In this document: piece by piece, positions 40,041 through 64,000 of the stretch
Position numbering within the stretch: position 1 is the stretch's first letter
Layout of the letters: each line of letters opens with the position of its first letter
Origin: an uncultured delta proteobacterium
Lineage (GTDB): Bacteria > Myxococcota > Myxococcia > Myxococcales > Myxococcaceae
NCBI GenBank assembly: GCA_963771175.1
Contig: CAVYSY010000038.1
Location: 224,001 to 288,000 of the forward strand
Reading direction: 5' to 3'
Length of the DNA stretch: 64,000 bases
Notes under the pieces: generated by a model
Databases searched by the model: none
Seen by the model: only the letters and a program-made list of their open reading frames with translations
Told to the model about the DNA's origin: nothing
Made by a program: the position numbers and the translations under genes

Positions 40041-41396
<1,356 letters not shown>

Positions 41397-41596
41397 GCCT
41401 TCACCTCGCTCGCGTCCGGCCCGGCCCGGGCGCCTCATGGGCGCCTCGACGCTCCTCCAGTCATACCCTCGGAGCAAACACGAGACCCGGCCGTGCCCGT
41501 GCCCGGCCACGCGTCGTCCCCACCAGCGCGCAGGACGGCTTCGGTGCTCGTCCGCCCGGCGAAGTAGCCGGCGCACTTCACGGCCGAGCAGTCCCG

Positions 41597-41633
41597 AGGC
41601 CGGTCCCATTCACGGGGCCGGCCTTTTCGTTTT
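41597..41633 (+). terminator. Intrinsic terminator with no obvious upstream plus-strand CDS
   Basis: AGGCCGGTCCC-ATTCAC-GGGGCCGGCCT followed by TTTCGTTTT. Confidence 0.65.
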
Positions 41634-41802: not shown

Positions 41803-43331
<1,529 letters not shown>

Positions 43332-43353
43332 GCCAGGAGTCGAGGGTCCTGAA

Positions 43354-43746
43354 ATGGCCATCGAGCGCGTTGCCGTCACCCCCGCCGCCGAGGCCCTGCT
43401 GCGCAAGCTGCAGGGCCTCCACGGCCCCCTGATGTTCCATCAATCGGGAGGGTGCTGCGACGGCAGCGCGCCCATGTGCTTTCCGAGGGGCGAGTTCAAG
43501 GTGGGCCAGGAGGACGTGTTCCTCGGCACCATCGTGGACACGCCCTTCTACATCAGCGGTCCTCAGTTCGAGTACTGGCAGCACACGCACCTGACGGTGG
43601 ACGTGGTGAAGGGGCGCGGCAGCGGCTTCTCGGCCGAGGCCCCCGAGGGCGTGCGCTTCCTCATCCGCTCGCGCGTCTTCACCGACGACGAGTACCACGC
43701 CCTCCAGAAGGAAGGCCCACCTCCACGAGGGCCCCAGCACGGCTGA
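43354..43746 (+). CDS. DUF779 family protein
   Basis: HGPLMFHQSGGCCDGSAPMC; usual neighbour of AldB. Confidence 0.9.
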   Translation: MAIERVAVTPAAEALLRKLQGLHGPLMFHQSGGCCDGSAPMCFPRGEFKVGQEDVFLGTIVDTPFYISGPQFEYWQHTHLTVDVVKGRGSGFSAEAPEGVRFLIRSRVFTDDEYHALQKEGPPPRGPQHG

Positions 43747-49577: not shown

Positions 49578-50195
49578 CTAGGAGCTTCGCTTCGCGATGG
49601 GTTCGGCGGCCTTCAGCCGCTCCACGGTCGCCGCGTACACGGGGCCCAGCGAGTCGAAGTAGTCGCTCCAGCTCGATGTCTTGCTTTTCGACAGGTAGAG
49701 GTCCAGCGTGGGCAGCGCCGCTTCACGGTCATGGAGCACTTGCCGTAGCAGCTCGAGCTGCACATGGGGCGTGAGCGCGAAGGCATTGACCTCGTGCCCG
49801 ACCGTGATGAAGGTGCGCTCGACGGCCTCGTACTCCGCCTGCGAGCGCGAGAGGACGCCGACATGGCGCTCGCTCGAGGGTGGACCGCCCTCGCCGTAGC
49901 GATGCCCCTCGCAGCTCGTATAGGTGATGAGGCCGTGGTGCCGGGCGACGACGACGACGAGGTCGCGCACGCCCTCCTCGACGAATTGCTCGAACTGGGG
50001 GTGGAGGGGAGGCAGGATGCTCGCCGGCAGCTCACCGGCCCCACCGGCGTTGTTGATGTTGCCGTAGTCCGATTTGCGCAAGGAATACTCGACCCGGTTG
50101 GCCATGGCCCGGGGATCGTCCCACTGCTCCATGAGGTCGCGGGCCCCGTCCAAACGGTTGACGAGCCGCCTCCCTCCTCTATCGAGCTCTTTCAT
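49578..50195 (-). CDS. Unknown protein with TYTSCEGH motif
   Basis: Intact ORF with GGAGA RBS; no family recognised. Confidence 0.7.
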   Translation of the reverse strand: MKELDRGGRRLVNRLDGARDLMEQWDDPRAMANRVEYSLRKSDYGNINNAGGAGELPASILPPLHPQFEQFVEEGVRDLVVVVARHHGLITYTSCEGHRYGEGGPPSSERHVGVLSRSQAEYEAVERTFITVGHEVNAFALTPHVQLELLRQVLHDREAALPTLDLYLSKSKTSSWSDYFDSLGPVYAATVERLKAAEPIAKRSS

Positions 50196-50351
50196 CGTTG
50201 TCTCCGCCAAGGCTCACGAACCGGCGCATACCAGTCGAGTGCTCACCTTACCGTGGCACAATCTCGATTGTATAATCACTCTCAACAGCAGAAGCAATAC
50301 AGCCGGTGCGGTGTCGAGCGAAGACATCCGTGAGGAAGGACGCCTCCGAAT

Positions 50352-51009
50352 TCAGGGCCGTCGAGCCAATTCCTCGAGCGCTTCGGCAACCACACCTTCC
50401 TCGATGGCCTCCATGCTCCCGGCACCGGTGATGTGGCGATGGTGCTTCGTCACCCGGAAGCCCCAACGCTGCTCGGAGGTGGGCCCGAACAACCCGACCG
50501 ACGGCAGCCGAAAGAAGTCCGCGGCGTGCAGCATGCAGGAGTCCACTCCGAGGAATGCGTCACAAATCCCCACCAGCGCCATGGCCGGCGGAATCGCAAT
50601 CCCCGAGGCGGCCAGAACCTGCTTCCCCCGGGGGATGGACTCCAGTCCGCGATCCGCCAGGTCCAGGACGAGCACGAGCCACTCAGGGTGGCGTGTGAGA
50701 AAGGCATTCAGCACACGCTTGAAGCTTTCCAACGGCCATTGCTTCGAGGGAGCCGTCTCGGTATGCACCGCGAGCACCCTGCTCCACGACGACGTGTGTT
50801 TGCTTCATCTCCGCGCGCACCGCGCGGACCTCCCGCAGCGGCAGGCCCGAGTAGAAGAGCTGCTCATCTCCCGGGGCGCCCACGACCCTCAGGCGGCCAG
50901 AGTACAGCTCGGAGAGGGCACGCACGGCCGGCAACGCCAGGAGGCGATCTCCGGTGCCGTTGACGTGGAAGACCACGGGCGCACGGGCGTTTCGAAGTGG
51001 GCCGTCCAT
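50352..51009 (-). CDS. Glycosyltransferase family 9-like protein (frameshifted, apparently internally shortened)
   Basis: GTGDRLLALPAVRAL, SKQWP, FLGVDSCMLHAA, VGLFGPT...WG; only ~220 codons. Confidence 0.75.
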
Positions 51010-51020
51010 GATGCAATGGC

Positions 51021-53460
51021 TCACTCGCTCCTGATGGCGATGATGGGGTCCACGCGCGAGGCCCGGCGCGCGGGCATCCACGTGGCCAGCAGGGCGATGA
51101 TGCCCAGCAGCAGCGCGAGCGAGCCGAAGGTGAGCGGATCCCTCGTGCTCACCCCATAGAGGAGGCTCTCCATGAAGCGCGACAGGCCGAAAGCCCCGGC
51201 GAGCCCGGCGCCCACGCCCAGGGCGGCCAGCAGCGCCCCCTGGCGCATCACCAGCTTCACGACGTCCGAGGGCTGCGCGCCCAGGGCCATCCGGATGCCG
51301 AGCTCTCGCGTGCGCTGGGAGACGGTGTAGGAGATGACGCCGTAGAGGCCCGCGGTGGCGAGCACCAGGGCGATGACGGCGAAGGCTCCCAGCAGCACCA
51401 GGTTCATCCGGCGCGCCACCATGGAGCGCGAGATGATCTCCTCCATGGTGAACACCTCGGCGATGGCCAGCTCCGAGTCCACGGACTTCACCGCCGCCCG
51501 CAGCGCGGAGGCGCCGGCCGTCGAATCCACCGTCGTCCTCACCACCAGGAACACGTCCTGGAGACCAAAGGGGTTGGCCCCGGCCTGGTTGTAGGGCAGG
51601 TCGATCTCCGGGACAGGCTTCCGGTCCAACCCACCCTGGCGCACGTCGCCCACCACGCCGATGACGGTGGCGGACTGCCTCATGAACGTCAGCCGCCGGC
51701 CCACCGCTTCGCCCTGGCCGAAGTGCCGCTGGGCCAACGCCTGGTTGATGATGACCACGAGCTCCCCCTGGCCATCCTGCTCGGTGAATTCGCGCCCGGC
51801 CAGCAAGGGAATCCCCATGGCCTTGATGAGGCCCGGACTCAGGGCGCGGAACTCCGCCATTGGATCCTTCCCCGGTTCGGGCTCCGGCTCCCCCTCGACG
51901 GTGTAGCTGGTGGTGAGGGACCCTGGATGGATGGGGAGCAGCGAGGTGAGCCCCACGGACTGCACGCCGGGCTGAGAGCGCAACTGCTCCAGGACGGGCT
52001 GGAAGACGCGCTGGGGGGCCTCCGCGAGCGGGTACTTGTAGGTGGGCACCGACATGCGGGCGGTGAGCACACCGCGCGCGTCGAAGCCCGGCGCCTCGTT
52101 GAGCAGGGTGATGAAGCCACGCATCATCAGCCCGGCGCCCACCAGGAGGATGAGCGACAGGGCCAGCTCACCCACCACGAGCCCACCACGGAAGCGGTGT
52201 TGCGCCCGCGACGACGAGGCCTTCGTCCCGGACCCGCCGAGGCTGGCGCGCAGGTCGGTGCGAGTGACCTGCAGCGCCGGGAAGAGCCCGAAGAGCACCG
52301 AGCTGCCCGCGGCCACCAGCAGCAGCAGGCCGAAGACGTTGCCCCGCAGCGAGATGTCGCCGAGCAGCGGCAACGAGCGCGACACCAGGCCCTCCAGCGC
52401 ACTCACGCCCCAGGCCGCCAGGAGCGCTCCGAGCACCGCGCCCGCCAGCGACAGCACCAGGCTCTCCACGAGCATCTGCCGGATGAGGCGGGACCGGCTC
52501 GCGCCAAGCGCAGCCGGACGGCCATCTCCTTGCGGCGCGCGGCCCCCTGGGCGAGCAGGAGGTTGGCCACGTTGGCACAGGCGATGAGCAGCACGAGCAG
52601 CACCGTGCCCTGGAGGATGAGCAGCACGGGCCGCACCTTCCCCATCACCGTCTCCGTGAGCGGCACGGCCGTGGCGCTGCGCCCGGCCAGGTCGTTCGGG
52701 TAGGCCTCCTGCAGACGGGTGACGAGCTGGCGCAGCTCGGTGTTGGTGGCCTCGAGGCTCACCCCGGACTTGAGCCGGCCGATGACGTTCAGGAAGCGCG
52801 AGCCCCGGGCCTCGGCGTTCGGGCCCGTGACGGAGAGGGGGATGAACAGGTCCATCTGCGTCTGCGTGCCCGCGGGGAACTGGACCGCGGTCGGCAGCAC
52901 GCCGATGACCGTGTAGGGCAGCCCATCCAGCGTCAGGCTCTGGCCGAGCAGCGCGGGGTTCTCGCCGAAGCGCCGCTTCCAAAGCCCCTCGCTCACCACC
53001 ACCACGGGCGCGCTGCCGGGGGCATCCTCTCCCGGGGAGAAGCCACGGCCGAGCCGCGGCTCCACGCCGAGCACCTGGAAGAGATTGGCGGAGACCTCGG
53101 CGACGCGCAGCCGCTCGGTGCCCTCGCTCCGCCCAGGTTACGGCTCTTGAGGGTGTAGGTGGCGAGGCCTTCGAGGCTCTGGAGCTGCTGCGCCCAGTCC
53201 CGGACGTTGGGCCAGGAGGCGGACTCGCGCAGGTTGGGATCTCTCTGGGGCACCGTCTCGAAGAGGCGCACGAGCCGCTCCGGCTCCGCGTACGGCAGCG
53301 GGCGCAGGAGCGTGGCGTCCACCACGCTGAAGATGGCCGCGTTGGCGCCGATTCCCAGGGCCAGGCACAGCACCGCCACCGTGGTGAAGCCCGGGCTCTT
53401 GCCCAGCCTGCGCAACGCGAAGCGGACATCCCGGCTCAGGTCATCCATCCAGCTCGTCAT
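51021..53460 (-). CDS. Duplicated MacB/FtsX-type ABC permease (frameshifted)
   Basis: [54 protein letters not shown]. Confidence 0.9.
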
Positions 53461-53550
53461 TCCACGCACCCCTTGGGCAGGACCCACCATGGCCTCGGTC
53501 CTCTCCGGACATGCCGGGCAGCTCGATGGAGCAAGGCCTTCAGCAGCCTA

Positions 53551-53895
53551 CTACGTGTTGCGCTCCAGCTCCGCGCAGGTCTCGGCCGTGCCGGCGCACG
53601 GCACGGTGTCGAGCTGCCTGAGGCGCTCCAGCTCCGCGCAGGCCTCGGGCGTGCCGGCGCACGGCTCGGTGGTGCCGAGCTGCTTGTTGCGCTCCAGCTC
53701 CGCGCAGGCCTCGGGCGTGCCAGCGCACGGCTCGGTGGTGCCGAGCTGCTTGTTGCGCTCCAGCTCCGCGCAGGCCTCGGGCGTGCCGGCGCACGGCTCG
53801 GTGGTGGACTCCGACGTCACGAGCTCCTCCGGACCACAGCCCGTGGCGAGGACCGTCAATCCCAGGGTGGCAAGCAGCAGGCACGGCTTGAGCAT
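53551..53895 (-). CDS. Lipoprotein with four 22-aa Cys-pair repeats
   Basis: MLKPCLLLATLGLTVLATGC lipobox; GGAGAG RBS; repeat unit TTEPCAGTPEACAELERNKQLG. Confidence 0.8.
   Translation of the reverse strand: MLKPCLLLATLGLTVLATGCGPEELVTSESTTEPCAGTPEACAELERNKQLGTTEPCAGTPEACAELERNKQLGTTEPCAGTPEACAELERLRQLDTVPCAGTAETCAELERNT
53554..53806. repeat. 66-bp coding tandem repeat, about four copies
   Basis: GGCCTCGGGCGTGCC recurs at 53641, 53707 and 53773; a diverged fourth copy lies near 53575. Confidence 0.95.
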
Positions 53896-53978
53896 GTGCA
53901 TCTCTCCGGTGAGGGTACGAAGGGTCTGAAGCACTATCATCCAGCAATTCAGGGAAAATTGGAATGAAAGGGGGAGTC

Positions 53979-56106
<2,128 letters not shown>

Positions 56107-56127
56107 GGTGAGCACGTGCGGCGAAGT

Positions 56128-56658
56128 CTACTCGCGGAGGAGATGGACGAGGTACTTCCGGGGGGGCGTCCACACCTGCACCTTGAGCGGCAACGGCGCG
56201 GAAGGGGCCGGGAGGGCGGGGTCGGGGGCGAGCAACACCTGGAGGCAGGACGCCTGCTCCGGGGGCGAGGAGGCCTGCAAGAAGGCCCGGGACTCGCGGC
56301 TGCACGGGCCGGTGGAGAGCTTGGAGATCACCCCCCGCGAGCGCTCCGCCGAGCCCGCGAAGCGGAACTCGAGCGTATCGCCGGGACGCAGGTGCTCGGC
56401 GGCCGTCGGCTCCAGGGAGAGCTCGAGCCCCTGACCCCGCGCGGGGGCGTCTTCCACCAGGGCGACGAACATCGGCTGGAAGTCGAGCCGTGACAGCGCG
56501 AAGCCAAGGAGCGCCATGAGGAGCAGGGGGACCAAGGTCACCAGCCGCAGCGACAGCGGACGCAGCAGGCTGATCTCCCCGAGGTGACGCACTCGGCGGT
56601 GGTTGAGCGCCTCGTACCTGAAGAGAGGCCGGCCTTGAACGGGGGGCTCGGGTTTCAT
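56128..56658 (-). CDS. Short HlyD/CvaA-like accessory protein
   Basis: LFRYEAL...GEISLLRP plus TM segment as in CvaA-type N-termini; no coiled-coil hairpin. Confidence 0.65.
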   Translation of the reverse strand: MKPEPPVQGRPLFRYEALNHRRVRHLGEISLLRPLSLRLVTLVPLLLMALLGFALSRLDFQPMFVALVEDAPARGQGLELSLEPTAAEHLRPGDTLEFRFAGSAERSRGVISKLSTGPCSRESRAFLQASSPPEQASCLQVLLAPDPALPAPSAPLPLKVQVWTPPRKYLVHLLRE

Positions 56659-56700
56659 GATCGTCACCAATCCGTGGGCAAGCGCCGGCCCCCCGACGGC

Positions 56701-57855
56701 TCAGGCACCCTGTGCCGTCAGCCGGGCACGCAGAGGACGGGAGAGGGCAAGGCCCAGCTCGCTCAGCCCCACCTCGCTCTCGATGGGGACGCGCAGTTGT
56801 TCCATGTACGCGACAATCGTGCTCTGGCGGCTGGAGATCTCCTTCTGAAGCCCCATGGCGCGGAACTTCTCGAAGGCGATGAGCGCGTTGCCGAAGGCAT
56901 GATAGCCGATGAGGATCCGGTCGAGGGGGCGCTCGCACTTCTTGAGGGGCGAGTAATGCGGCCTGGCCTCGGGCGTCACGAACGAACCGACCCAGCTCGC
57001 CATGTGGAAGTACTGGTGCGAGCACTCGTGAATCATCATCTCCGCCGTCTCCGTGGGCGTGGCCGGCACGCACAGGTCGATGCCGCCGAAGCGGCGCGGC
57101 GAGGAGCCGCTGGCGATCATGTTCCAGTCCGGACGGCGGATGGGAGTGATCTCCTTGAGCAGACAGAGGACCCAGGCGCGATACTCCGGCATGGCCCGGC
57201 CCATCAGCTCCAGGGCCTCCTCGAACTGGGCGACCGCTCCCTGATTCACGACCGCCGCGGGCTGGCTGAGCTCATCCAGAAAGGTCGTGTGCCACTCGGC
57301 ACCCACCACGCGGATGGTGGGCTGACCGTCGACCCGGACGAACGAGGACTCCGTGCCGGCTTCAGCCCACACGGGGCTGCCGTTGCGCTGGGCGATGACC
57401 GAGAACGACCGGGGGGCGGTAGCGCCCTCGGCCTGGATCGTCATCCGGTCGGCTCCACCCCGGATGGAGAGACGCGCGGCGGGGACGAGCTGGCCGGCCA
57501 CGAAGAGAGGCGCGTTCGTCTCGACGTCGAGCTCGAGCTCGGAGGTCACTCCCGTCACGTGCGCGCTGAGGGAAATCTGGGCCCGGAGCCAGTTCCAGTC
57601 GCCCTCCGTGAAGGCCTGCTTCGACAGGCCGTTGAAGATGATCGCCACCTCCGGCGTCCAGTAGGCCGTGTTCGCCCCCCGCTGGGCGAGCCGCTGGGCG
57701 ATGTCGGCGAGCCGGGCGTCCTGGCTGTAGCCGTGCTGCTCGGCGAGGCGAATCGCCCGGCGACAGAAGACCCGGAACTGGTTGGTGGCAAGCTCGGCCG
57801 TCAGGGCGGCGTAATCGCCCTCGAAAGGATTGGACAGTCGGTTGAAGATTTCCAT
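56701..57855 (-). CDS. aKG-HExxH family peptide-modifying enzyme
   Basis: SGSS...FGGI, EMMIHECSHQ, YSPLKKCERPL..ILIGYHAF. Confidence 0.85.
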   Translation of the reverse strand: MEIFNRLSNPFEGDYAALTAELATNQFRVFCRRAIRLAEQHGYSQDARLADIAQRLAQRGANTAYWTPEVAIIFNGLSKQAFTEGDWNWLRAQISLSAHVTGVTSELELDVETNAPLFVAGQLVPAARLSIRGGADRMTIQAEGATAPRSFSVIAQRNGSPVWAEAGTESSFVRVDGQPTIRVVGAEWHTTFLDELSQPAAVVNQGAVAQFEEALELMGRAMPEYRAWVLCLLKEITPIRRPDWNMIASGSSPRRFGGIDLCVPATPTETAEMMIHECSHQYFHMASWVGSFVTPEARPHYSPLKKCERPLDRILIGYHAFGNALIAFEKFRAMGLQKEISSRQSTIVAYMEQLRVPIESEVGLSELGLALSRPLRARLTAQGA

Positions 57856-57859
57856 GGGC

Positions 57860-59170
57860 TCACTCGATGACGGGCAGTTCCATTGAATTGGCTTCGGGAA
57901 TCTGAATCTCGGCGGGAGCCGCGCCCAGGGTCACGGGCCGCAGGAAGTCCCGGGCCCAGAACTCGGGCTTGCGCGAGAGCACCTGCGACAGGCGCTCGAC
58001 GCCGTTCTCCCGCCTGGCCACGATGGCGGCGATCGCGGTGTGGATGGTGTCCAGCGTCTCGCAGAAGACCGAGGGTTGGTCGAAGCCGGACCCCTTCTGA
58101 TAGCGATTGAAGAGCTCTCCGGAGCGGCAGGTCCGGAACCAGTCGCAGCTCGCACACTTCTCGGGGGCCTTGTCGACGGCCCGCACGAGCTGCTGCCACA
58201 TGGGGCTGCCGAGGAACTGCGCGAGGGTGGTGTTGCGGACGTTGGTGTCCGCGTTGAAGAGCGCCTTGTCGAGCGCCATGATGTTGTCATCCATCCCGAG
58301 CTTGCCATCGCCGGAGATGGTGATGATGTGGTGGCGGGTGGAGCGCCTGAAGTCCATCCGCTGGGCGCCGGCGTCCGAGATCATCGCCGACATGATGTCG
58401 GAGAGGAGCTGGATGGTGACCAGCCGGCCGATCTTCTTGGGCGTCGTCTGCCAGTACTTGATGATCTCGGTGAAGTAGGCGACCCACTTGCTCTGGGGCT
58501 TCCAGACATCGCTGTCGTAGCCTTCTCGCGGCAGCAGGATGTTGAAGTTGTCGATGCCGAGATCCTCGACGAAGTGCCGGACGACCTCTTCTCCGCTGTG
58601 ATTGGGATTGGCCACGCAGAGGATGCCCGTGGCGCGGTTGCGCCCGGCACGCACCCCCTCCTGGAGCAAGCGCAGGCCCCTCACCGTGGCCTCGTAGCTC
58701 CCCTTCCCCTTATGATCGGGGCGGGCCGCGTCGTGGATGTGGGGCGGGCCATCCAGGCTCACTCCCGCGGCCACCTGGTGCTCGGCGAAGAGCGAGACCC
58801 ATTCCTGGTCGACTCGCGTCCCGTTCGTCTGGAGCCCGAGGTGGACGTTCGTCACATCCGAGAGCTCTTCGCGGAGGATGCGGCAGATGGCATCGAAGCG
58901 CTTCTTCGGCATCAGCAGGGGCTCGCCACCGTGCAGGCCGATGTAGAGGTGCTGGATGTCCATCTCCTGCACACCGCGGCGTAGGAACGCGGCGACGTCT
59001 CGGATCGTGGCCTCGGAGATCAGGGCGGGACTGCTCTTGTAGAGATCGTTTTCCTGAAAAAAGTAATAACAGTACGGGCACGCCAGGTTGCACCGCTCCG
59101 CTATCTTGAGGACCACGTCCAGACAATTGGCCCACTCTCGAGGTTCTCTGCGCATCCTCGCCTCACTCAT
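57860..59170 (-). CDS. Radical SAM/SPASM peptide maturase, triceptide (cyclophane-forming) type
   Basis: KIAERCNLACPYCYYF, HGGEPL, QTNG, SLDGP, DGKLGMDD, C-x2-C-x5-C-x21-C. Confidence 0.88.
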   Translation of the reverse strand: MSEARMRREPREWANCLDVVLKIAERCNLACPYCYYFFQENDLYKSSPALISEATIRDVAAFLRRGVQEMDIQHLYIGLHGGEPLLMPKKRFDAICRILREELSDVTNVHLGLQTNGTRVDQEWVSLFAEHQVAAGVSLDGPPHIHDAARPDHKGKGSYEATVRGLRLLQEGVRAGRNRATGILCVANPNHSGEEVVRHFVEDLGIDNFNILLPREGYDSDVWKPQSKWVAYFTEIIKYWQTTPKKIGRLVTIQLLSDIMSAMISDAGAQRMDFRRSTRHHIITISGDGKLGMDDNIMALDKALFNADTNVRNTTLAQFLGSPMWQQLVRAVDKAPEKCASCDWFRTCRSGELFNRYQKGSGFDQPSVFCETLDTIHTAIAAIVARRENGVERLSQVLSRKPEFWARDFLRPVTLGAAPAEIQIPEANSMELPVIE

Positions 59171-59185
59171 CCTGGGTTGCGGTGC

Positions 59186-59232
59186 AAAAAGCGGCCAGCC
59201 GCCGCGGGGTTGAGTCCACTGCGTCTGGCCGC
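59186..59232 (-). terminator. Hairpin plus U-tract between precursor and maturase
   Basis: GCGGCCAG (59191-59198) pairs with CTGGCCGC (59225-59232); AAAAA at 59186-59190 reads as U5 on the minus strand. Confidence 0.65.
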
Positions 59233-59248
59233 CTACAGCGAACGACTA

Positions 59249-59464
59249 CTACTCCATCTGCTCCAGCTCCTTACCGAGCGAGCCGTGCGCGGAGCCGTGG
59301 CCGGAGAGGTGGCCCGAGGCGTGCGCGGCGGCGGCGCTCACCGCATCCAGGTGCACGTCCATGAGCTCCACCAGCTCCTGGTCCGCGACGACCAGGTTCT
59401 TCTCCGAGGCGCCATCGAGCTTCGCCTTCAGACGGTCCGCCAGGGTCGAGAGGTTGTTATCCAT
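59249..59464 (-). CDS. RiPP precursor peptide with four HxS motifs
   Basis: AAGGAGG RBS; leader ...ELMDVHLDAVSAA; core AAHASGHLSGHGSAHGSLGKELEQME; directly upstream of the rSAM gene. Confidence 0.85.
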   Translation of the reverse strand: MDNNLSTLADRLKAKLDGASEKNLVVADQELVELMDVHLDAVSAAAAHASGHLSGHGSAHGSLGKELEQME

Positions 59465-59999: not shown

Positions 60000-60356
60000 T
60001 CAGTCTCGGGGGGGGGCGTCCGAGCCGGGCATCGGAATCTCCTCGCCCCGAAGGCGTCCTCGGAACACCGCGGCCCGCATCAGGAACAGGGTGGTGACCG
60101 GCGCGGTGAGCGCGATGAACACCGCGATGAGCAGCGCATGAAGGTAGAGCTGGCCGCGTTCGTAGGAGACCTGCACCGCCGTCGCGAGCGCGAAGCCCCA
60201 GGTGCCCAGCGTCGCGCCCAGGGTGGGCGCGTGGACGCGCTGGAAGAAGCTCCTCAGGCGCAGCACCCCGAACGAGCCGATCAGCGCCGCCAGCGCCCCC
60301 CCCACCACGAGCACCGCGGTCAGCGCATCCACCCACGGAGGAGTCCACCCGTTCAT
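60000..60356 (-). CDS. phaG: Mrp/Pha antiporter subunit G
   Basis: GSFGVLRLRSFFQRVHAPT, LTAPV. Confidence 0.9.
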   Translation of the reverse strand: MNGWTPPWVDALTAVLVVGGALAALIGSFGVLRLRSFFQRVHAPTLGATLGTWGFALATAVQVSYERGQLYLHALLIAVFIALTAPVTTLFLMRAAVFRGRLRGEEIPMPGSDAPPRD

Positions 60357-60631
60357 TCGATGACCTCCCCGCGCAGGAGGAACTTGGCCATCGCCGTGGA
60401 GCCCACGAACCCGAAGAGGGCGATCAAGAGCGCCGCCTCGAAGTAGGAGCTGCTGCGATAGACGAGCCCCAGCGCGAGGATGACCAGCATCGCGTTCAGG
60501 TACAGGCAGTCGAACGCCAACACGCGGTCCTCCGCCCTGGGCCCGACAATCATCCGTGCCAGCGCCAGCACCATCGCGAGGGCAAGACAGCCAAGGGCGA
60601 ATGCCAGCGACCAGGAGAGCAGAGGGCTCAT
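60353..60631 (-). CDS. phaF: Mrp/Pha antiporter subunit F
   Basis: GPRAEDRVLAFD, FGFVGSTAMAKFLLRGEVIE. Confidence 0.9.
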   Translation of the reverse strand: MSPLLSWSLAFALGCLALAMVLALARMIVGPRAEDRVLAFDCLYLNAMLVILALGLVYRSSSYFEAALLIALFGFVGSTAMAKFLLRGEVIE

Positions 60632-61115
60632 TCGAAGATCTCCCTGAGCGGACGCTCGTAGTGATGCTTGATGAAGGTCACCAGGTTCGTCTCGCTCTGA
60701 ATGGCGAGCACGTGCAGCAGCAGGACGCGGTTGTCCGCCGACAACTGCGCCCAGGCGGTGCCCGGCGTGAACGTGACGATCATCGCCAGCACGGCCAATC
60801 CGTTCGGATCCTTCAGCTCGAGCGGAATGAGCACGAAGCCGGAGCGGATGTCGCGCGAGCGCTGGGTGAGAATCGCCCACGCCACCTCGGCGTTCGACCG
60901 CAGCATCTCGAGCACCACCCGGCAGAACAGGCGAGCCAGGAGGAGGGGCCTGCGCAACCGCACGGGGGTGGGCCGAGCCCGACGGTCACCGCGGGCCAGA
61001 ACAGCGCCAGGGCGGCGCCCAGCACCAGCGTCCCCGCGTCCAACGACTGCATGAGGAGAATCCAGAGCAGGAGCAGCGCCACCGAGAGCGCGGGAGAAGG
61101 AAGGAGCCGCCTCAT
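60628..61115 (-). CDS. phaE: Mrp/Pha antiporter subunit E (frameshifted)
   Basis: IVTFTPGT, LLLHVL, YERPLREIFE. Confidence 0.88.
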
Positions 61116-62755
61116 CGCCCCGCCTCCGGCGCCGTGGCGGGCGGCCGCACCTCTGCTCCGAGGACCGCGTCGATGTACCCGCGGCGGTCATAGAGGGACT
61201 GGGCCGTTGCGCGCGCGAGCTCCATCGCGGGTCCCGCCGCGAGCGTCAGCACTCCGCACGCGGTGAGGAGCACCACCAGGGACAAGCCCTCCGGCGCCCG
61301 GACCCGAGGGGGCTCGCGCTGCATCTCGGACCAGAAGGTCCGGATTCCCGTCCGCGTGAGCGCGATGAGGGTGAGCAGGCCGCAGCCCAGGAGCACCGCC
61401 GGTGAACAGCCATGCACGGGCGGAGACTGGCCCGCTCCTCCCGGGCGACCCGAGCGCCGCCGACAACATGCCGAGCTTGCCGATGAAGGTGGACAGCGGA
61501 GGCAGGCCGGAGATGAGCAGTGCGCACGCGATGAAGGCCAGGCCCAACAGCGCGGTGGAGGCGGGGAACGGCAGGGCGACGAGCGGCTCCTCCTCGTCGT
61601 CGAGGTTGACCTCCTGCGTCTCGAGCGTCGCGCTCAAGAAGGGCGCCTCGTCCACCACGGTCGCACCCGCACGCCACCGCTCGACGAGGTCGACGAGCAG
61701 GAAGAAGGCGCTGGAGGCCAGCGTGGAGCTCACCAGGTAGAACACCGCGCGGCCGAGGACGGCTTCCTCGCCCAGGCCCAGCGCCGCCAGGAGCGTCCCG
61801 GCGGAGACCATCACCCCCGCCGCCGCCTGGACCGCGAGCCTCTGCGAGGCGATCATCCCCAGGGCCGCGAACACCGCGGAGACCACTCCGAACGCGAGCA
61901 GCCCGTCCGAGCCGAACCCCGCCAGCGGCCCCCCGGCGAACATCAGCGTCCAGAGCCGCACCAGGGCGTAGACGCCGACCTTCGTGAGCACCGCGAACAT
62001 CGCCGCCACCGGCGGAGTCGCCGACGCATAGGCGGGGACGAGCCAGAAGTTGAGCGGCCAGGCCGCCGCCTTGGCCAGGAACGCCACCGCGAGGATGGCC
62101 GCTCCCGCGTCGATGAGGTGCCGGTTGGCCACATTCTCCTGGGACAGGCGCGCGGAGAGCTCCGCCATGTTGAGCGTCCCGGTGACGCCGTAGATCATCG
62201 ACACGCCGATGAGGAAGAGCGACGAGGCGGCGAGGTTCACCGCCACGTAGTGCAGGCCCGCGCGGACCCGCGACTTTCCGGAGCCATGCAGCAACAGGCC
62301 GTACGAGGCGGCGAGGAGAATCTCGAAGAAGACGAAGAGGTTGAAGACGTCCGCCGTCAGGAACGCGCCGGAGAGCCCCATGAGCTGCAGCTGGAAGATG
62401 GGGTGGAAGTGAACGCCCGCGCGGTGCCAGCGCGTGAAGGCGAAGGAGAGCGCGCAGGTGCCCAGGATCCAGGTCAGCACCAACATCCCCGCCGACAGCC
62501 GGTCCACCGCGAGGGCGATCCCGAACGGCGCGGGCCAGTTGCCGGGCAGGTAGGCCACGACGCCGTATTCGTTCACCCACGCCGAGCAGCACCACCGAGA
62601 CGGCGAGTCCCAGGAGCGCGGAGATCATCCCCATCAGCAGCTTCGCCGGGCGGCGCCCCTCGCCCAGGAGGAGCATCACCGCCGCGGTCAGCATCGGCAG
62701 GAGGATGGGCGCCACCATCAGGTGGGGCATCAGGGCCTTGGATGAGCGCGCTCAT
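61112..62755 (-). CDS. phaD: Mrp/Pha antiporter subunit D (frameshifted)
   Basis: GNWPAPFGI, DVFNLFVFFEILL, TKVGVY, GLPPLS. Confidence 0.9.
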
Positions 62756-63094
62756 GGCTCGGTGCCGTCCACGTGATCCGTCCCGGTCATCCCGCGCGAG
62801 GCCAGGATGATGACCAGGAGGAGCGCCGTCATCGCGAAGCTGATGACGATGGCCGTCAGCACGAGCGCCTGCGGCACCGGGTCCGTGTAGTGCGCGAGAT
62901 CCGGCGGGACGCCGTCCACGAGGATGGGCTCCTTGTCGATGGCCAGGCCGCCAATGCTGAAGATGAAGAGGTTGACCGCGTAGGAGAGCAGCGACAGGCC
63001 GACGACCAGCTGGAACGTGCGCGGGCCGCAGCAGCAGCCAGACGCCAGAGCCGGTCAGGATGCCGATAGCGATCGCGAGCACCACCTCCATCAA
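62752..63094 (-). CDS. phaC: Mrp/Pha antiporter subunit C (frameshifted)
   Basis: GVWLLLRP; shifted frame DPVPQALVLTAIVISF...DHVDG. Confidence 0.88.
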
Positions 63095-64000
63095 TCACCT
63101 CCCGAGGCCCGGTGCGCGCGGATGCGACTGGTGCGCGAGCGCCACGAGGATGAGCAGCGTGGCGCCCAGCACCAGGCAGAACACGCCCAGGTCGAAGAAC
63201 ACCGCGCTCCCAAGGTGGAGCTCGCCCAGCACCGGCACGTTCAGATGGAAGGTGTGCGAGGTGAGCAGCGGGTACCCGACCACGAACGACTCCCGACGGC
63301 CGTGCCGAGCACGAACAGGAGGCCGACCGCCATCATCGCGCGCGGCGCGAGGTCGCAGCCGCTCCTCGACCCACTCGGTCCCGGACACGAGGTACTGCAG
63401 CAGGAAGCCCACCGACATCACCAGCCCCGCGACGAACCCACCGCCCGGCGCGTTGTGCCCACGCAGGAAGAAGAACACCGCCACCACTCCCGACACGGGC
63501 AGGAGCAGCCGGATCAGCACCGCGGGGACCTCAGGTACCCCACCGCGGTGTCTCTGCGCCTGGCGCGGGTTCACCAGGTCCGTCTGCAGGTCCGCCGGCA
63601 GCGCGCTGCTGCTGCGGCGGAAGCGCCATCACCTCGGTCGCCGGCCGGAAGCGGCGCAGGAGCGCGTAGACGGTGAGCGCGACGAGCACCAGCACCACGC
63701 CCTCGCCGAAGGTGTCGAACCCGCGGAAGTCCACCAGCATCACGTTCACCACGTTCCGCCCGCCTCCGCCGCTCAGCGCGTGCTCGAGGAAGAAGGAGGT
63801 CCGCTCGGGGAGCTCGCGCGTCATCACCGCGTAGGCCAGCACCGCCATCCCGCAACCGGCGCCCAGCGCGATGAGGAAGTCGCGGGCTCGCCGGCCCCGG
63901 GCGATCCGCAGGGTGTGCGCGTCGTAGACGCCGCGCGCCGGCTCTCGCGGCGGCAGCCACCGGAGCCCGAGCAGGATGAGCAGCGTCGTCACCACCTCGA
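63095..64000 (-). CDS. phaA: Mrp/Pha antiporter subunit A/B, 3' part (frameshifted; 5' end outside the window)
   Basis: GGRNVVNVMLVDFRGFDTFGE, RGHNAPGGGFVAGL, FFDLGVF. Confidence 0.9.

Follow-up and report, generated by a model that had tools for sequence, protein, structure and literature searches.

This study concerns a 64,000-nucleotide stretch of DNA (the window; contig CAVYSY010000038.1 of assembly GCA_963771175.1, positions 224,001 to 288,000) from an uncultured delta proteobacterium of the Myxococcaceae, and a cluster of nine genes within it that very probably specifies a triceptide pathway, yielding a peptide that is made on the ribosome and modified after translation (a RiPP). As predicted from sequence comparisons, a radical S-adenosylmethionine (SAM) enzyme would form His-Ser rings on a His-x-Ser repeat precursor, an α-ketoglutarate (aKG)-HExxH enzyme would carry out some oxidation, and a C39 exporter would remove the leader and secrete the product; it is to these three assignments taken jointly that we attach high confidence. 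The genes are co-oriented on the minus strand from 59464 to 49578, in the order put forward by an earlier sequence-only reading of the window: precursor, radical SAM/SPASM enzyme, HExxH oxygenase, HlyD-like adaptor, C39 ABC exporter, Cys-repeat lipoprotein, MacB-like permease, GT9-family glycosyltransferase and a protein named here after its SCEGH motif. By all class features that can be tested, the cluster is a predicted triceptide pathway and not a XyeB, YhhB, FxsB, GrrM, AmcB or HXS system. The precursor, radical SAM, HExxH and SCEGH genes are intact.

The precursor and its core enzymes

The precursor (71 aa, 59249..59464) was recognized as a conserved open reading frame (ORF); neither XyeA nor any other NCBIfam model matched any of the eight precursors scanned. 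A ribosome-binding sequence, AGGAGG, lies 7 nt ahead of the start, and the leader ends in LMDVHLDAVSAA (...LDAVSAA), which resembles the double-Gly site of XyeA; by analogy, cleavage would occur after ...DAVSAA at this double-Gly-type site. The core reads AA-HAS-G-HLS-G-HGS-A-HGS, followed by a variable tail, and thus contains four His-x-Ser triplets with a four-residue spacing (positions 48, 52, 56 and 60; codons at 59323-59279). At least four such triplets arose by chance in 11 of 200,000 shuffles of the core, and the pattern (HxSx)2HxS has a single occurrence in the six-frame translation of the 9.8-Mb genome assembly. Compared with an intact homologous cluster (L010), codons 1-66 show 15 synonymous and 7 non-synonymous changes. 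Loss of the peptide from homologous loci, which the sequence-only reading had named as evidence that would tell against it, is not the case: all nine relatives compared from the clade of the radical SAM enzyme (L009-L015, L020 and L061) carry an upstream peptide that shares the leader and has two or more His-x-Ser triplets.

The radical SAM/SPASM enzyme (436 aa, 57860..59170), a predicted cyclophane synthase related to XyeB, has the SAM-cluster cysteines C27/C31/C34 (PF04055, 55.5 bits) and the cysteines of the second auxiliary cluster (AuxII; C339/C342/C348/C370), and lacks the AuxI cysteines that AslB and YdeM have at the first auxiliary site. It scored 292.7 bits with the NCBIfam model for XyeB, 217.2 with YhhB and 199 with FxsB; scores were weaker with GrrM/OscB (112, cut-off 310), AmcB (119, cut-off 425) and HxsB (71.4, cut-off 370). 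In a 36-row tree the enzyme falls in a 10-row clade (support 100/99) inside a group with an annotated XyeB (98/95), to which it is 34.5% identical, and the HxsB-like rows lie far from this clade. The triceptide-type assignment made from sequence alone is therefore borne out by model scores and tree (XyeB 292.7 against 134.1 bits for the sulfatase maturase model TIGR03942).

We consider it hardly credible that the enzyme is instead a sulfatase maturase beside an incidental small ORF. It does score with TIGR03942, and the structure of an anaerobic sulfatase-maturating enzyme (anSME) matches it by sequence (E 2e-22). However, the best sequence match in the PDB is the radical SAM domain of ChlB (E 1.3e-29), the scores with the cyclophane models reach as much as double that with TIGR03942, and the anSME cut-off is 349.45 bits. 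The AuxI cysteines of anSME are absent, the precursor is kept in all nine relatives, and Pfam and NCBIfam scans found no sulfatase among the nine cluster genes. Grouping with sulfatase maturases, the outcome that the sequence-only reading had singled out as damaging, was tested with a tree constrained to unite the clade with AslB, YdeM and L016 and was rejected by the approximately unbiased (AU) test (p-AU 1.1e-4).

In the first step of the proposed pathway, to which we give strong confidence, the enzyme would staple as many as four His-x-Ser triplets through a bond between His-C2 and Ser-Cβ, with a loss of 2 Da for each. Weighing against a precise assignment, it reaches no curated cut-off (XyeB 450, YhhB 445, FxsB 370), so its exact chemistry is extrapolated. 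An Arg follows the LLP/NFP motif in 10/10 members of the clade (LLP-R at residues 212-215, 58526-58537 of the window), and outside the clade the same position holds His, Asp, Leu or other residues. HaaB H204 and HtkB D214 are described as determining which third residue is chosen (PMC11499958), and the clade Arg, matched by eye, is their apparent counterpart; it may mark Ser-accepting enzymes.

The same features bear on a different possibility, namely that the enzyme acts on the triplets and makes another product, such as a C-O or C-N bond, an oxidized Ser or a +8 Da modification of the HXS type. The scores below every family cut-off and the Arg at the apparent specificity site leave room for it, and HxsB/HxsC are reported to give +8 Da on a His-x-Ser repeat (PMC13128918). 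We nevertheless find it quite improbable, given the HxsB score of 71.4 out of 370 bits, the remoteness of the HxsB-like rows, a cluster that holds no second radical SAM gene, and the His-C2/Cβ links reported for HaaB, YhhB, HtkB, ScaB and MicB.

The clade is represented in 5 of the 201 family genomes, the source genome included (at least 41% identity), and is thus patchy; its named records come from Myxococcota, Acidobacteriota, Pseudomonadota and Cyanobacteriota. According to PMC11499958, some 3,900 putative triceptide pathways have been catalogued, so the clade may already be among them. It offers a directly testable system for a short peptide with four predicted His-Ser rings in tandem.

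The aKG-HExxH oxygenase (384 aa, 56701..57855) matches TIGR04267 with 65.7 bits (cut-off 40), in agreement with the sequence-only reading, and its motif residues H276-E-x-x-H280 together with the distal H319 are kept in 10/10 aligned homologues. In the second step, held with moderate confidence, it would oxidize the ring-bearing peptide, most likely by His β-hydroxylation. ChlH, an HExxH enzyme linked to a radical SAM enzyme, is a His β-hydroxylase that hydroxylates both His and Asp of ring peptides, as summarized in PMC12636437, and the matched NCBIfam model is itself named β-hydroxylase. Both points argue against backbone cleavage at the Gly or Ala after a His-x-Ser ring, giving amides or short ring peptides instead of or besides hydroxylation, which we consider unlikely. 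In favour of cleavage, all rings except the last precede Gly or Ala, the tail is variable, the HEXXH enzymes PflC/PosC are described as cutting at Ala/Gly (PMC12636437), and MicC as cutting at the Gly that follows a His-Ala-Ser ring (PMC12912966); MicC, however, has a different, double-stranded β-helix (DSBH), fold.

Export is assigned to a short HlyD-like membrane-fusion adaptor (176 aa, 56128..56658) and a peptidase C39 ABC exporter (53979..56106), both as the sequence-only reading had them. The adaptor has no Pfam or NCBIfam match and was identified from its ESM features (ESM Atlas, 0.97 to ‘HlyD family secretion protein’; nearest Pfam family, the LcnD_C/AprE barrel), and the exporter was identified by a domain match to a hidden Markov model (HMM) and by comparison with L010. 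In the final, fifth step, which we also regard as strong, the exporter would cut the leader after ...DAVSAA and secrete the core with the help of the adaptor. Products of xye clusters are antibiotics, and by analogy the peptide could be a secreted antagonist, a reading that we favour without giving it an even chance; metal binding is our second choice and appears rather doubtful. Minviopeptin is reported to have shown no activity in its assay panel (PMC12912966).

Among the nine relatives, a downstream HExxH gene is present in 9/9, a co-oriented C39 exporter in 7/9, the permease of the ADOP family in 5/9, the SCEGH gene in 5/9 (and in 6 of the 7 rows of a tight subclade that includes the window), and the GT9 and lipoprotein genes in 1/9 each. 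On these counts the core consists of precursor, radical SAM enzyme, HExxH enzyme and exporter, with the SCEGH gene as the commonest addition. Individual relatives carry genes of their own: L061 has three HExxH genes, L014 has a 2-oxoglutarate (2OG)-Fe(II) oxygenase between precursor and radical SAM enzyme, L011 has an adenylation-carrier protein after the SCEGH gene, and L009 has a GT4-GT2 fusion after the permease.

The SCEGH protein

The SCEGH protein (205 aa, 49578..50195) was left unexplained by the sequence-only reading; it can now be placed in an unnamed family with a possibly TYW3/Taw3-like fold, on the basis of a profile, an AlphaFold2 model and a fold search, and is the most novel part of the cluster. 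It belongs to no Pfam or NCBIfam family. A profile search gathered 431 clusters at 50% identity, and the gene was present in 2 of 401 genomes of the phylum. A scan of five whole genomes (G034, G118, G080, G048 and G437) gave no match in a run that had no positive control, and the same profile did match known loci in a separate search. A radical SAM gene accompanies the SCEGH gene at 25 of 40 metagenome loci, and at 19 of the 20 that span at least 5 kb, compared with a background of 3 in 793 12-kb tiles of the source genome; these counts include near-copies (L021/22, L027/L011, L039/40, L047-49, L053/54 and L055/56), and the radical SAM profile was built partly from enzymes of 12 of the same loci, with a weak, distant match at L035.

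In independent NCBIfam scans, 12/12 of the neighbours tested fell into SPASM maturase families, and two of them, an FxsB and a GrrM, exceeded the cut-off. The SCEGH domain is fused to the radical SAM enzyme in P0057, P0143 and L054 and to the HExxH enzyme in P0168, and both plasmid matches (2/2) lie within genes annotated ‘radical SAM protein’, with an HExxH gene nearby. Candidate precursors from 21 groups of SCEGH loci contain His in 21/21 and His-x-Ser in 19/21, a count biased by their having been chosen by eye and partly on His content. At L028 the SCEGH gene has no clear peptide-maturase neighbour, and at L035 the neighbour is weak and distant; the family might therefore have a role beyond RiPP clusters as well. 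Overall, about 430 sequence clusters of an unnamed family track radical SAM peptide maturases; should the protein methylate peptides, its gene would serve as a handle for mining many clusters that are as yet unstudied.

The AlphaFold2 model (predicted local distance difference test score, pLDDT, 93) was compared with 48,161 chains. Ranks 1-4 were all TYW3/Taw3 structures, with Z 7.5, 7.4, 6.9 and 5.8, root mean square deviations (rmsd) of 3.6-4.0 and 7-12% identity, with 129 residues aligned (114 in the fourth case), and the next match had Z 4.7. TYW3 methylates a ring nitrogen. In an alignment of 135 SCEGH sequences, E73, G97 and H98 are present in 135, C95 in 134 and S94 in 132, the last four falling in the motif [TS]Y[TS]SC[EQ]GH at residues 91-98 (TYTSCEGH in the window). 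The TYW3 signature is described as an Asp, (S/T)xSSCxGR and a His, of which the Asp and His are needed for SAM binding (PMC5311493). The two families appear to share an acidic residue, an S/T-x-S/T-S-C-x-G motif and a later His in the same order, with an acid-to-Ser spacing of 21 in SCEGH and 22 in TYW3; the match is by order and spacing and not by residue-level superposition. Comparison of ESM features gave TYW3 (0.86), DUF6919 and the SAM-binding domain of methylenetetrahydrofolate reductase (MTHFR; 0.88), all in the range 0.86-0.89 and at the level of leads.

A number of results weigh against reading this likeness as shared function. The best TYW3 match (Z 7.5, rmsd 3.9, 12% identity) lies below the caution line of Z 8, under which two folds may share a common arrangement only. 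A Foldseek search of the PDB returned nothing at E<=0.001, and the TYW3 family PF02676 matched 0 of 52 SCEGH members. TYW3's essential Arg is His in SCEGH, and H111, the counterpart of TYW3 H73, is present in 88/135 sequences (65%). The MTHFR regulatory domain also matches the fold (Z 4.4), as do uncharacterized jumbo-phage proteins of 140-180 aa (best E 7.6e-4, template modelling score about 0.5), and for this reason the fold alone does not fix the function. The gene is, moreover, missing from 4/9 of the clade relatives. Profile sequence searches against the PDB gave chance-level matches only, and PF02676 matched nothing in the source genome, the control being positive in two archaea. The SCEGH family further differs from TYW3/Taw3 in being bacterial and in lying in peptide clusters; where PMC2938197 speaks of TYW3, it names archaea and eukaryotes only.

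In the third proposed step, the SCEGH protein would bind SAM and methylate the ring peptide, on analogy most plausibly at an imidazole nitrogen. That the protein is a SAM-dependent tailoring methyltransferase, whatever its site, is a tentative reading that we put just short of an even chance. Its chief competitor, for which the prospects seem close to even as well, holds that the protein is a dedicated partner and no methyltransferase: either a Cys/His/His/Glu metal enzyme, acting for example in trimming of the C-terminal tail, or a module of the radical SAM enzyme for sensing of SAM or S-adenosylhomocysteine (SAH) or for scaffolding. C95, H98, E73 and, in many sequences, H111 are potential metal ligands, and the replacement of the TYW3 Arg, the appearance of the MTHFR regulatory domain in both the fold search and the ESM comparison, and the three fusions to radical SAM enzymes are consistent with a partner role, as is the class I methyltransferase already present in the SCEGH clusters L024 and L042. 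On the other hand, TYW3 scores 3 Z units higher than MTHFR, and the residues of the motif follow the TYW3 order. One locus (L060, also L018) combines SCEGH, precursor and HExxH genes with no exporter and with no radical SAM gene beside them, and is easier to reconcile with an enzyme that has the peptide as its substrate than with a radical SAM subunit. L060 (6948-9247) is a satellite locus with a four-triplet precursor, in a genome that also holds a full cluster (G015). If its members do methylate peptides, the family would add a class to the known RiPP tailoring enzymes and give the TYW3 fold a first role outside tRNA.

Several further SCEGH clusters were seen. L024, L042, L043, L047-L051 and the plasmid loci L089 and L090 form a distinct radical SAM clade, in which the SCEGH domain is fused in L089 and L090, the precursors carry HHS/HTS/HSS, and NUDIX, nucleotidyltransferase, dTMP kinase, class I methyltransferase and TPR genes are present; this is possibly a peptide-nucleotide hybrid pathway. 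L019 and L039 are unannotated XyeB-related clusters with a SCEGH gene and one or two radical SAM enzymes.

The glycosyltransferase, permease and lipoprotein genes and the state of the locus

Compared with L010, four breaks are visible in the window that the sequence-only reading had not recorded: a +1 shift in the exporter near 54217, two -1 shifts in the permease near 53125 and near 52511, and an internal loss of 302 nt from the GT9 gene near 50782. In contigs from four public runs (about 90-99% identical to the window), the extra exporter base is missing in 4/4, and each lost permease base is present in the 3/3 that cover its site. The aldehyde dehydrogenase gene (41803-43400) and the pha antiporter genes (60350-64000), including that for PhaD, are likewise split across frames, so the assembly appears prone to indels. 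Because the public contigs disagree with it and housekeeping genes are broken too, the three single-nucleotide frameshifts are probably assembly errors, with strain-specific decay as the alternative. An 854-aa ORF at 53551-56115 was rejected as a single protein, since the frameshift joins the exporter to the lipoprotein.

The GT9-family glycosyltransferase gene (50352..51024) matches PF01075 with 42.3 bits (cut-off 22), and the predicted fold of its intact L010 homologue matches GT9 (Foldseek E 2.7e-16) and WaaC (3.5e-14). In run X1 some 301 additional bases stand at the junction, and a separate deletion of 124 nt lies near the end of the gene. Since the deletions differ between the source genome and X1, and the permease of run X3 continues into unrelated DNA, the GT9 gene looks dispensable in the lineage, and it is probably dead in the source genome. 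A fourth step, the addition of a sugar to a hydroxyl or to an imidazole N, would therefore be confined to strains whose GT9 gene is intact, and the glycosylated product suggested by the sequence-only reading is unlikely here.

The duplicated ADOP/MacB-like permease (51021..53460, identified by HMM and by comparison with L010) and the Cys-repeat lipoprotein (114 aa, 53551..53895) may have a role in self-protection. The latter is an orphan with a lipoprotein-type signal and four (E/V)PCAGTxExCAELER repeats; strong matches to it occur in 2 of the 201 genomes from the family, the source genome included, weak matches in 4 genomes (E 5e-4 to 1e-3) being left out of the count. The number of repeats varies, as run X2 skips 195 nt within the gene.

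Whether these three genes serve the peptide at all was considered. The view that they are passengers draws on the presence of the GT9 and lipoprotein genes in one of nine relatives each, on the damage to GT9 here and in X1, and on the unrelated DNA after the X3 permease. We regard it as fairly unlikely, given that the wider regions around relatives of GT9 (found in 15 of 401 phylum genomes) contain a candidate precursor in 6/7 and a radical SAM gene in 5/7, that the permease is present in 5/9 clade relatives, and that one locus, L041, brings together a radical SAM enzyme, two HExxH enzymes, SCEGH, GT9 and GmhD-like and GmhA-like genes. For the lipoprotein there is nothing against passenger status. 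The order at L041 (147-7956) is HGSH precursor, HExxH, FxsB-like radical SAM, HExxH, SCEGH, unknown ORF, GT9, GmhD-like (191 bits, below cut-off) and GmhA-like, the last cut by the contig end. This gene content points to heptose as the sugar and makes L041 the best candidate for a heptosylated RiPP. Heptosylation as a general reading of the GT9 genes was rejected, since the host genomes lack GmhA and GmhD over cut-off (0/5 myxobacterial genomes, with the source genome 82% complete); an HldE-like domain is present in 5/5, always below cut-off.

The widest reading would make the SCEGH family a bacterial branch of the TYW3 (class IX) methyltransferase fold, which is described to date for tRNA alone, and a general tailoring enzyme that N-methylates His-x-Ser imidazoles across unrelated radical SAM lineages, accompanied, where the GT9 gene is intact, by a RiPP-dedicated GT9 branch that glycosylates, with heptose at least in L041. 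We regard this joint reading as possible but on balance doubtful. If true, it would predict a fourfold-stapled, hydroxylated, methylated and glycosylated peptide and two enzyme classes new to RiPPs. The RiPP-linked GT9 branch is a second handle for genome mining.

A separate RiPP family shares the GT9 branch (L064-L070, L081 and L086, of genus g48, and L082-L084). Its one to three precursors end in HTSHTSDGWF or HSSHSDGDGFI, and it has an HxsB-like radical SAM enzyme (312-322 bits, cut-off 370), an ADOP permease and an ABC exporter; L082 adds an HExxH gene and a second radical SAM gene. The clusters L081-L084 and L086 come mostly from one genus and represent few independent events. L080 is a YhhB/FxsB-like GT9 cluster with an HExxH gene and a His-free precursor, and L085, the most distant GT9 region, has neither a precursor nor a radical SAM gene.

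Known systems and genomic surroundings

The nearest named system is xye (XyeA/XyeB, TIGR04496), by tree and HMM, and the two share a double-Gly-type leader and a HlyD protein with a peptidase ABC exporter. In contrast to xye, the radical SAM enzyme here reaches 292.7 of 450 bits, the core is built of His-x-Ser and not Trp/Phe motifs, HExxH, SCEGH, GT9 and permease genes are added, and the adaptor is under half the usual length. ChlB/ChlH show the same pairing of radical SAM and aKG-HExxH enzymes, ChlB being the best PDB sequence match; ChlB is fused, whereas the genes are separate here, and the radical SAM enzyme of the window is of a different branch (YhhB model, 217 of 445 bits). HaaB, HtkB, YhhB and ScaB are described as joining His-C2 to Cβ in His-x-x motifs with Ala, Lys or Arg as the third residue (PMC11499958, PMC11002830); the window enzyme has Arg at the specificity position. 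No HaaB or HtkB model was among its 25 best matches, the published sequences being compared by eye, as were the HaaA and HtkA leaders, which differ from that of the window precursor.

Minviopeptin (mic) has a His-Ala-Ser ring with a His-C2/Ser-Cβ bond, a transferase that modifies the imidazole N of the ring, and an aKG oxygenase that acts after cyclization, according to PMC12912966. As described there, it carries one His ring among Tyr/Phe rings, made with a PasB-like radical SAM enzyme, an ADP-ribosyltransferase and a DSBH oxygenase, whereas the window predicts four tandem His rings and has HExxH, GT9 and putative TYW3-fold genes; MicB and the window enzyme were set side by side by description only. 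The HXS antiphage system (HxsABCD) also uses radical SAM chemistry on His-x-Ser repeats, but is described with two radical SAM enzymes of an unrelated branch, HxsD, a peptidoglycan-binding effector protein and a +8 Da product, and with no exporter or HExxH enzyme (PMC13128918), as against one radical SAM enzyme here.

The novelty that the sequence-only reading proposed for the combination is thus divided. His-x-Ser cyclophanes are known, and because minviopeptin has His-C2/Ser-Cβ staples (PMC12912966) the core would be a new triceptide branch and not new chemistry; the SCEGH family and the GT9 branch stand as new leads. Among the matches listed in searches of open-licence PMC and bioRxiv texts, no paper dealt with this radical SAM clade, with a RiPP enzyme of the TYW3 fold or with a RiPP involving GT9 or heptose, and the words TYW3, histidine, imidazole and triceptide are all absent from a 2024 review of RiPP methyltransferases (PMC11285071).

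The cluster had been placed between the pha operon and a sigma54 operon. The right-hand neighbours are indeed PhaG/F/D, and the left neighbour is a sensor kinase; the sigma54 label is only loosely right, as an opposite-strand aldehyde dehydrogenase stands between the kinase and the sigma54 regulator (40041-41609). Shared flank synteny with L010 was not accepted, since tblastx gave short, scattered pieces; L009 gave no matches. No sigma70 promoter was found at the cluster. A terminator-like hairpin with a T-run, weak and noted for its position only, occupies the gap between precursor and radical SAM genes (59185..59205, minus strand), four such sites being seen in the region against 3.7 expected by chance. 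The G+C content of the nine-gene block is 67%, compared with 74% and 70% in the flanks and 69% in the whole genome. Two more unannotated XyeB-related clusters were noted elsewhere, L099 (5800-8095) with a Gly/Tyr/Gln-rich precursor and L100 (4474-8218) with a Phe/His precursor and a C39 exporter.

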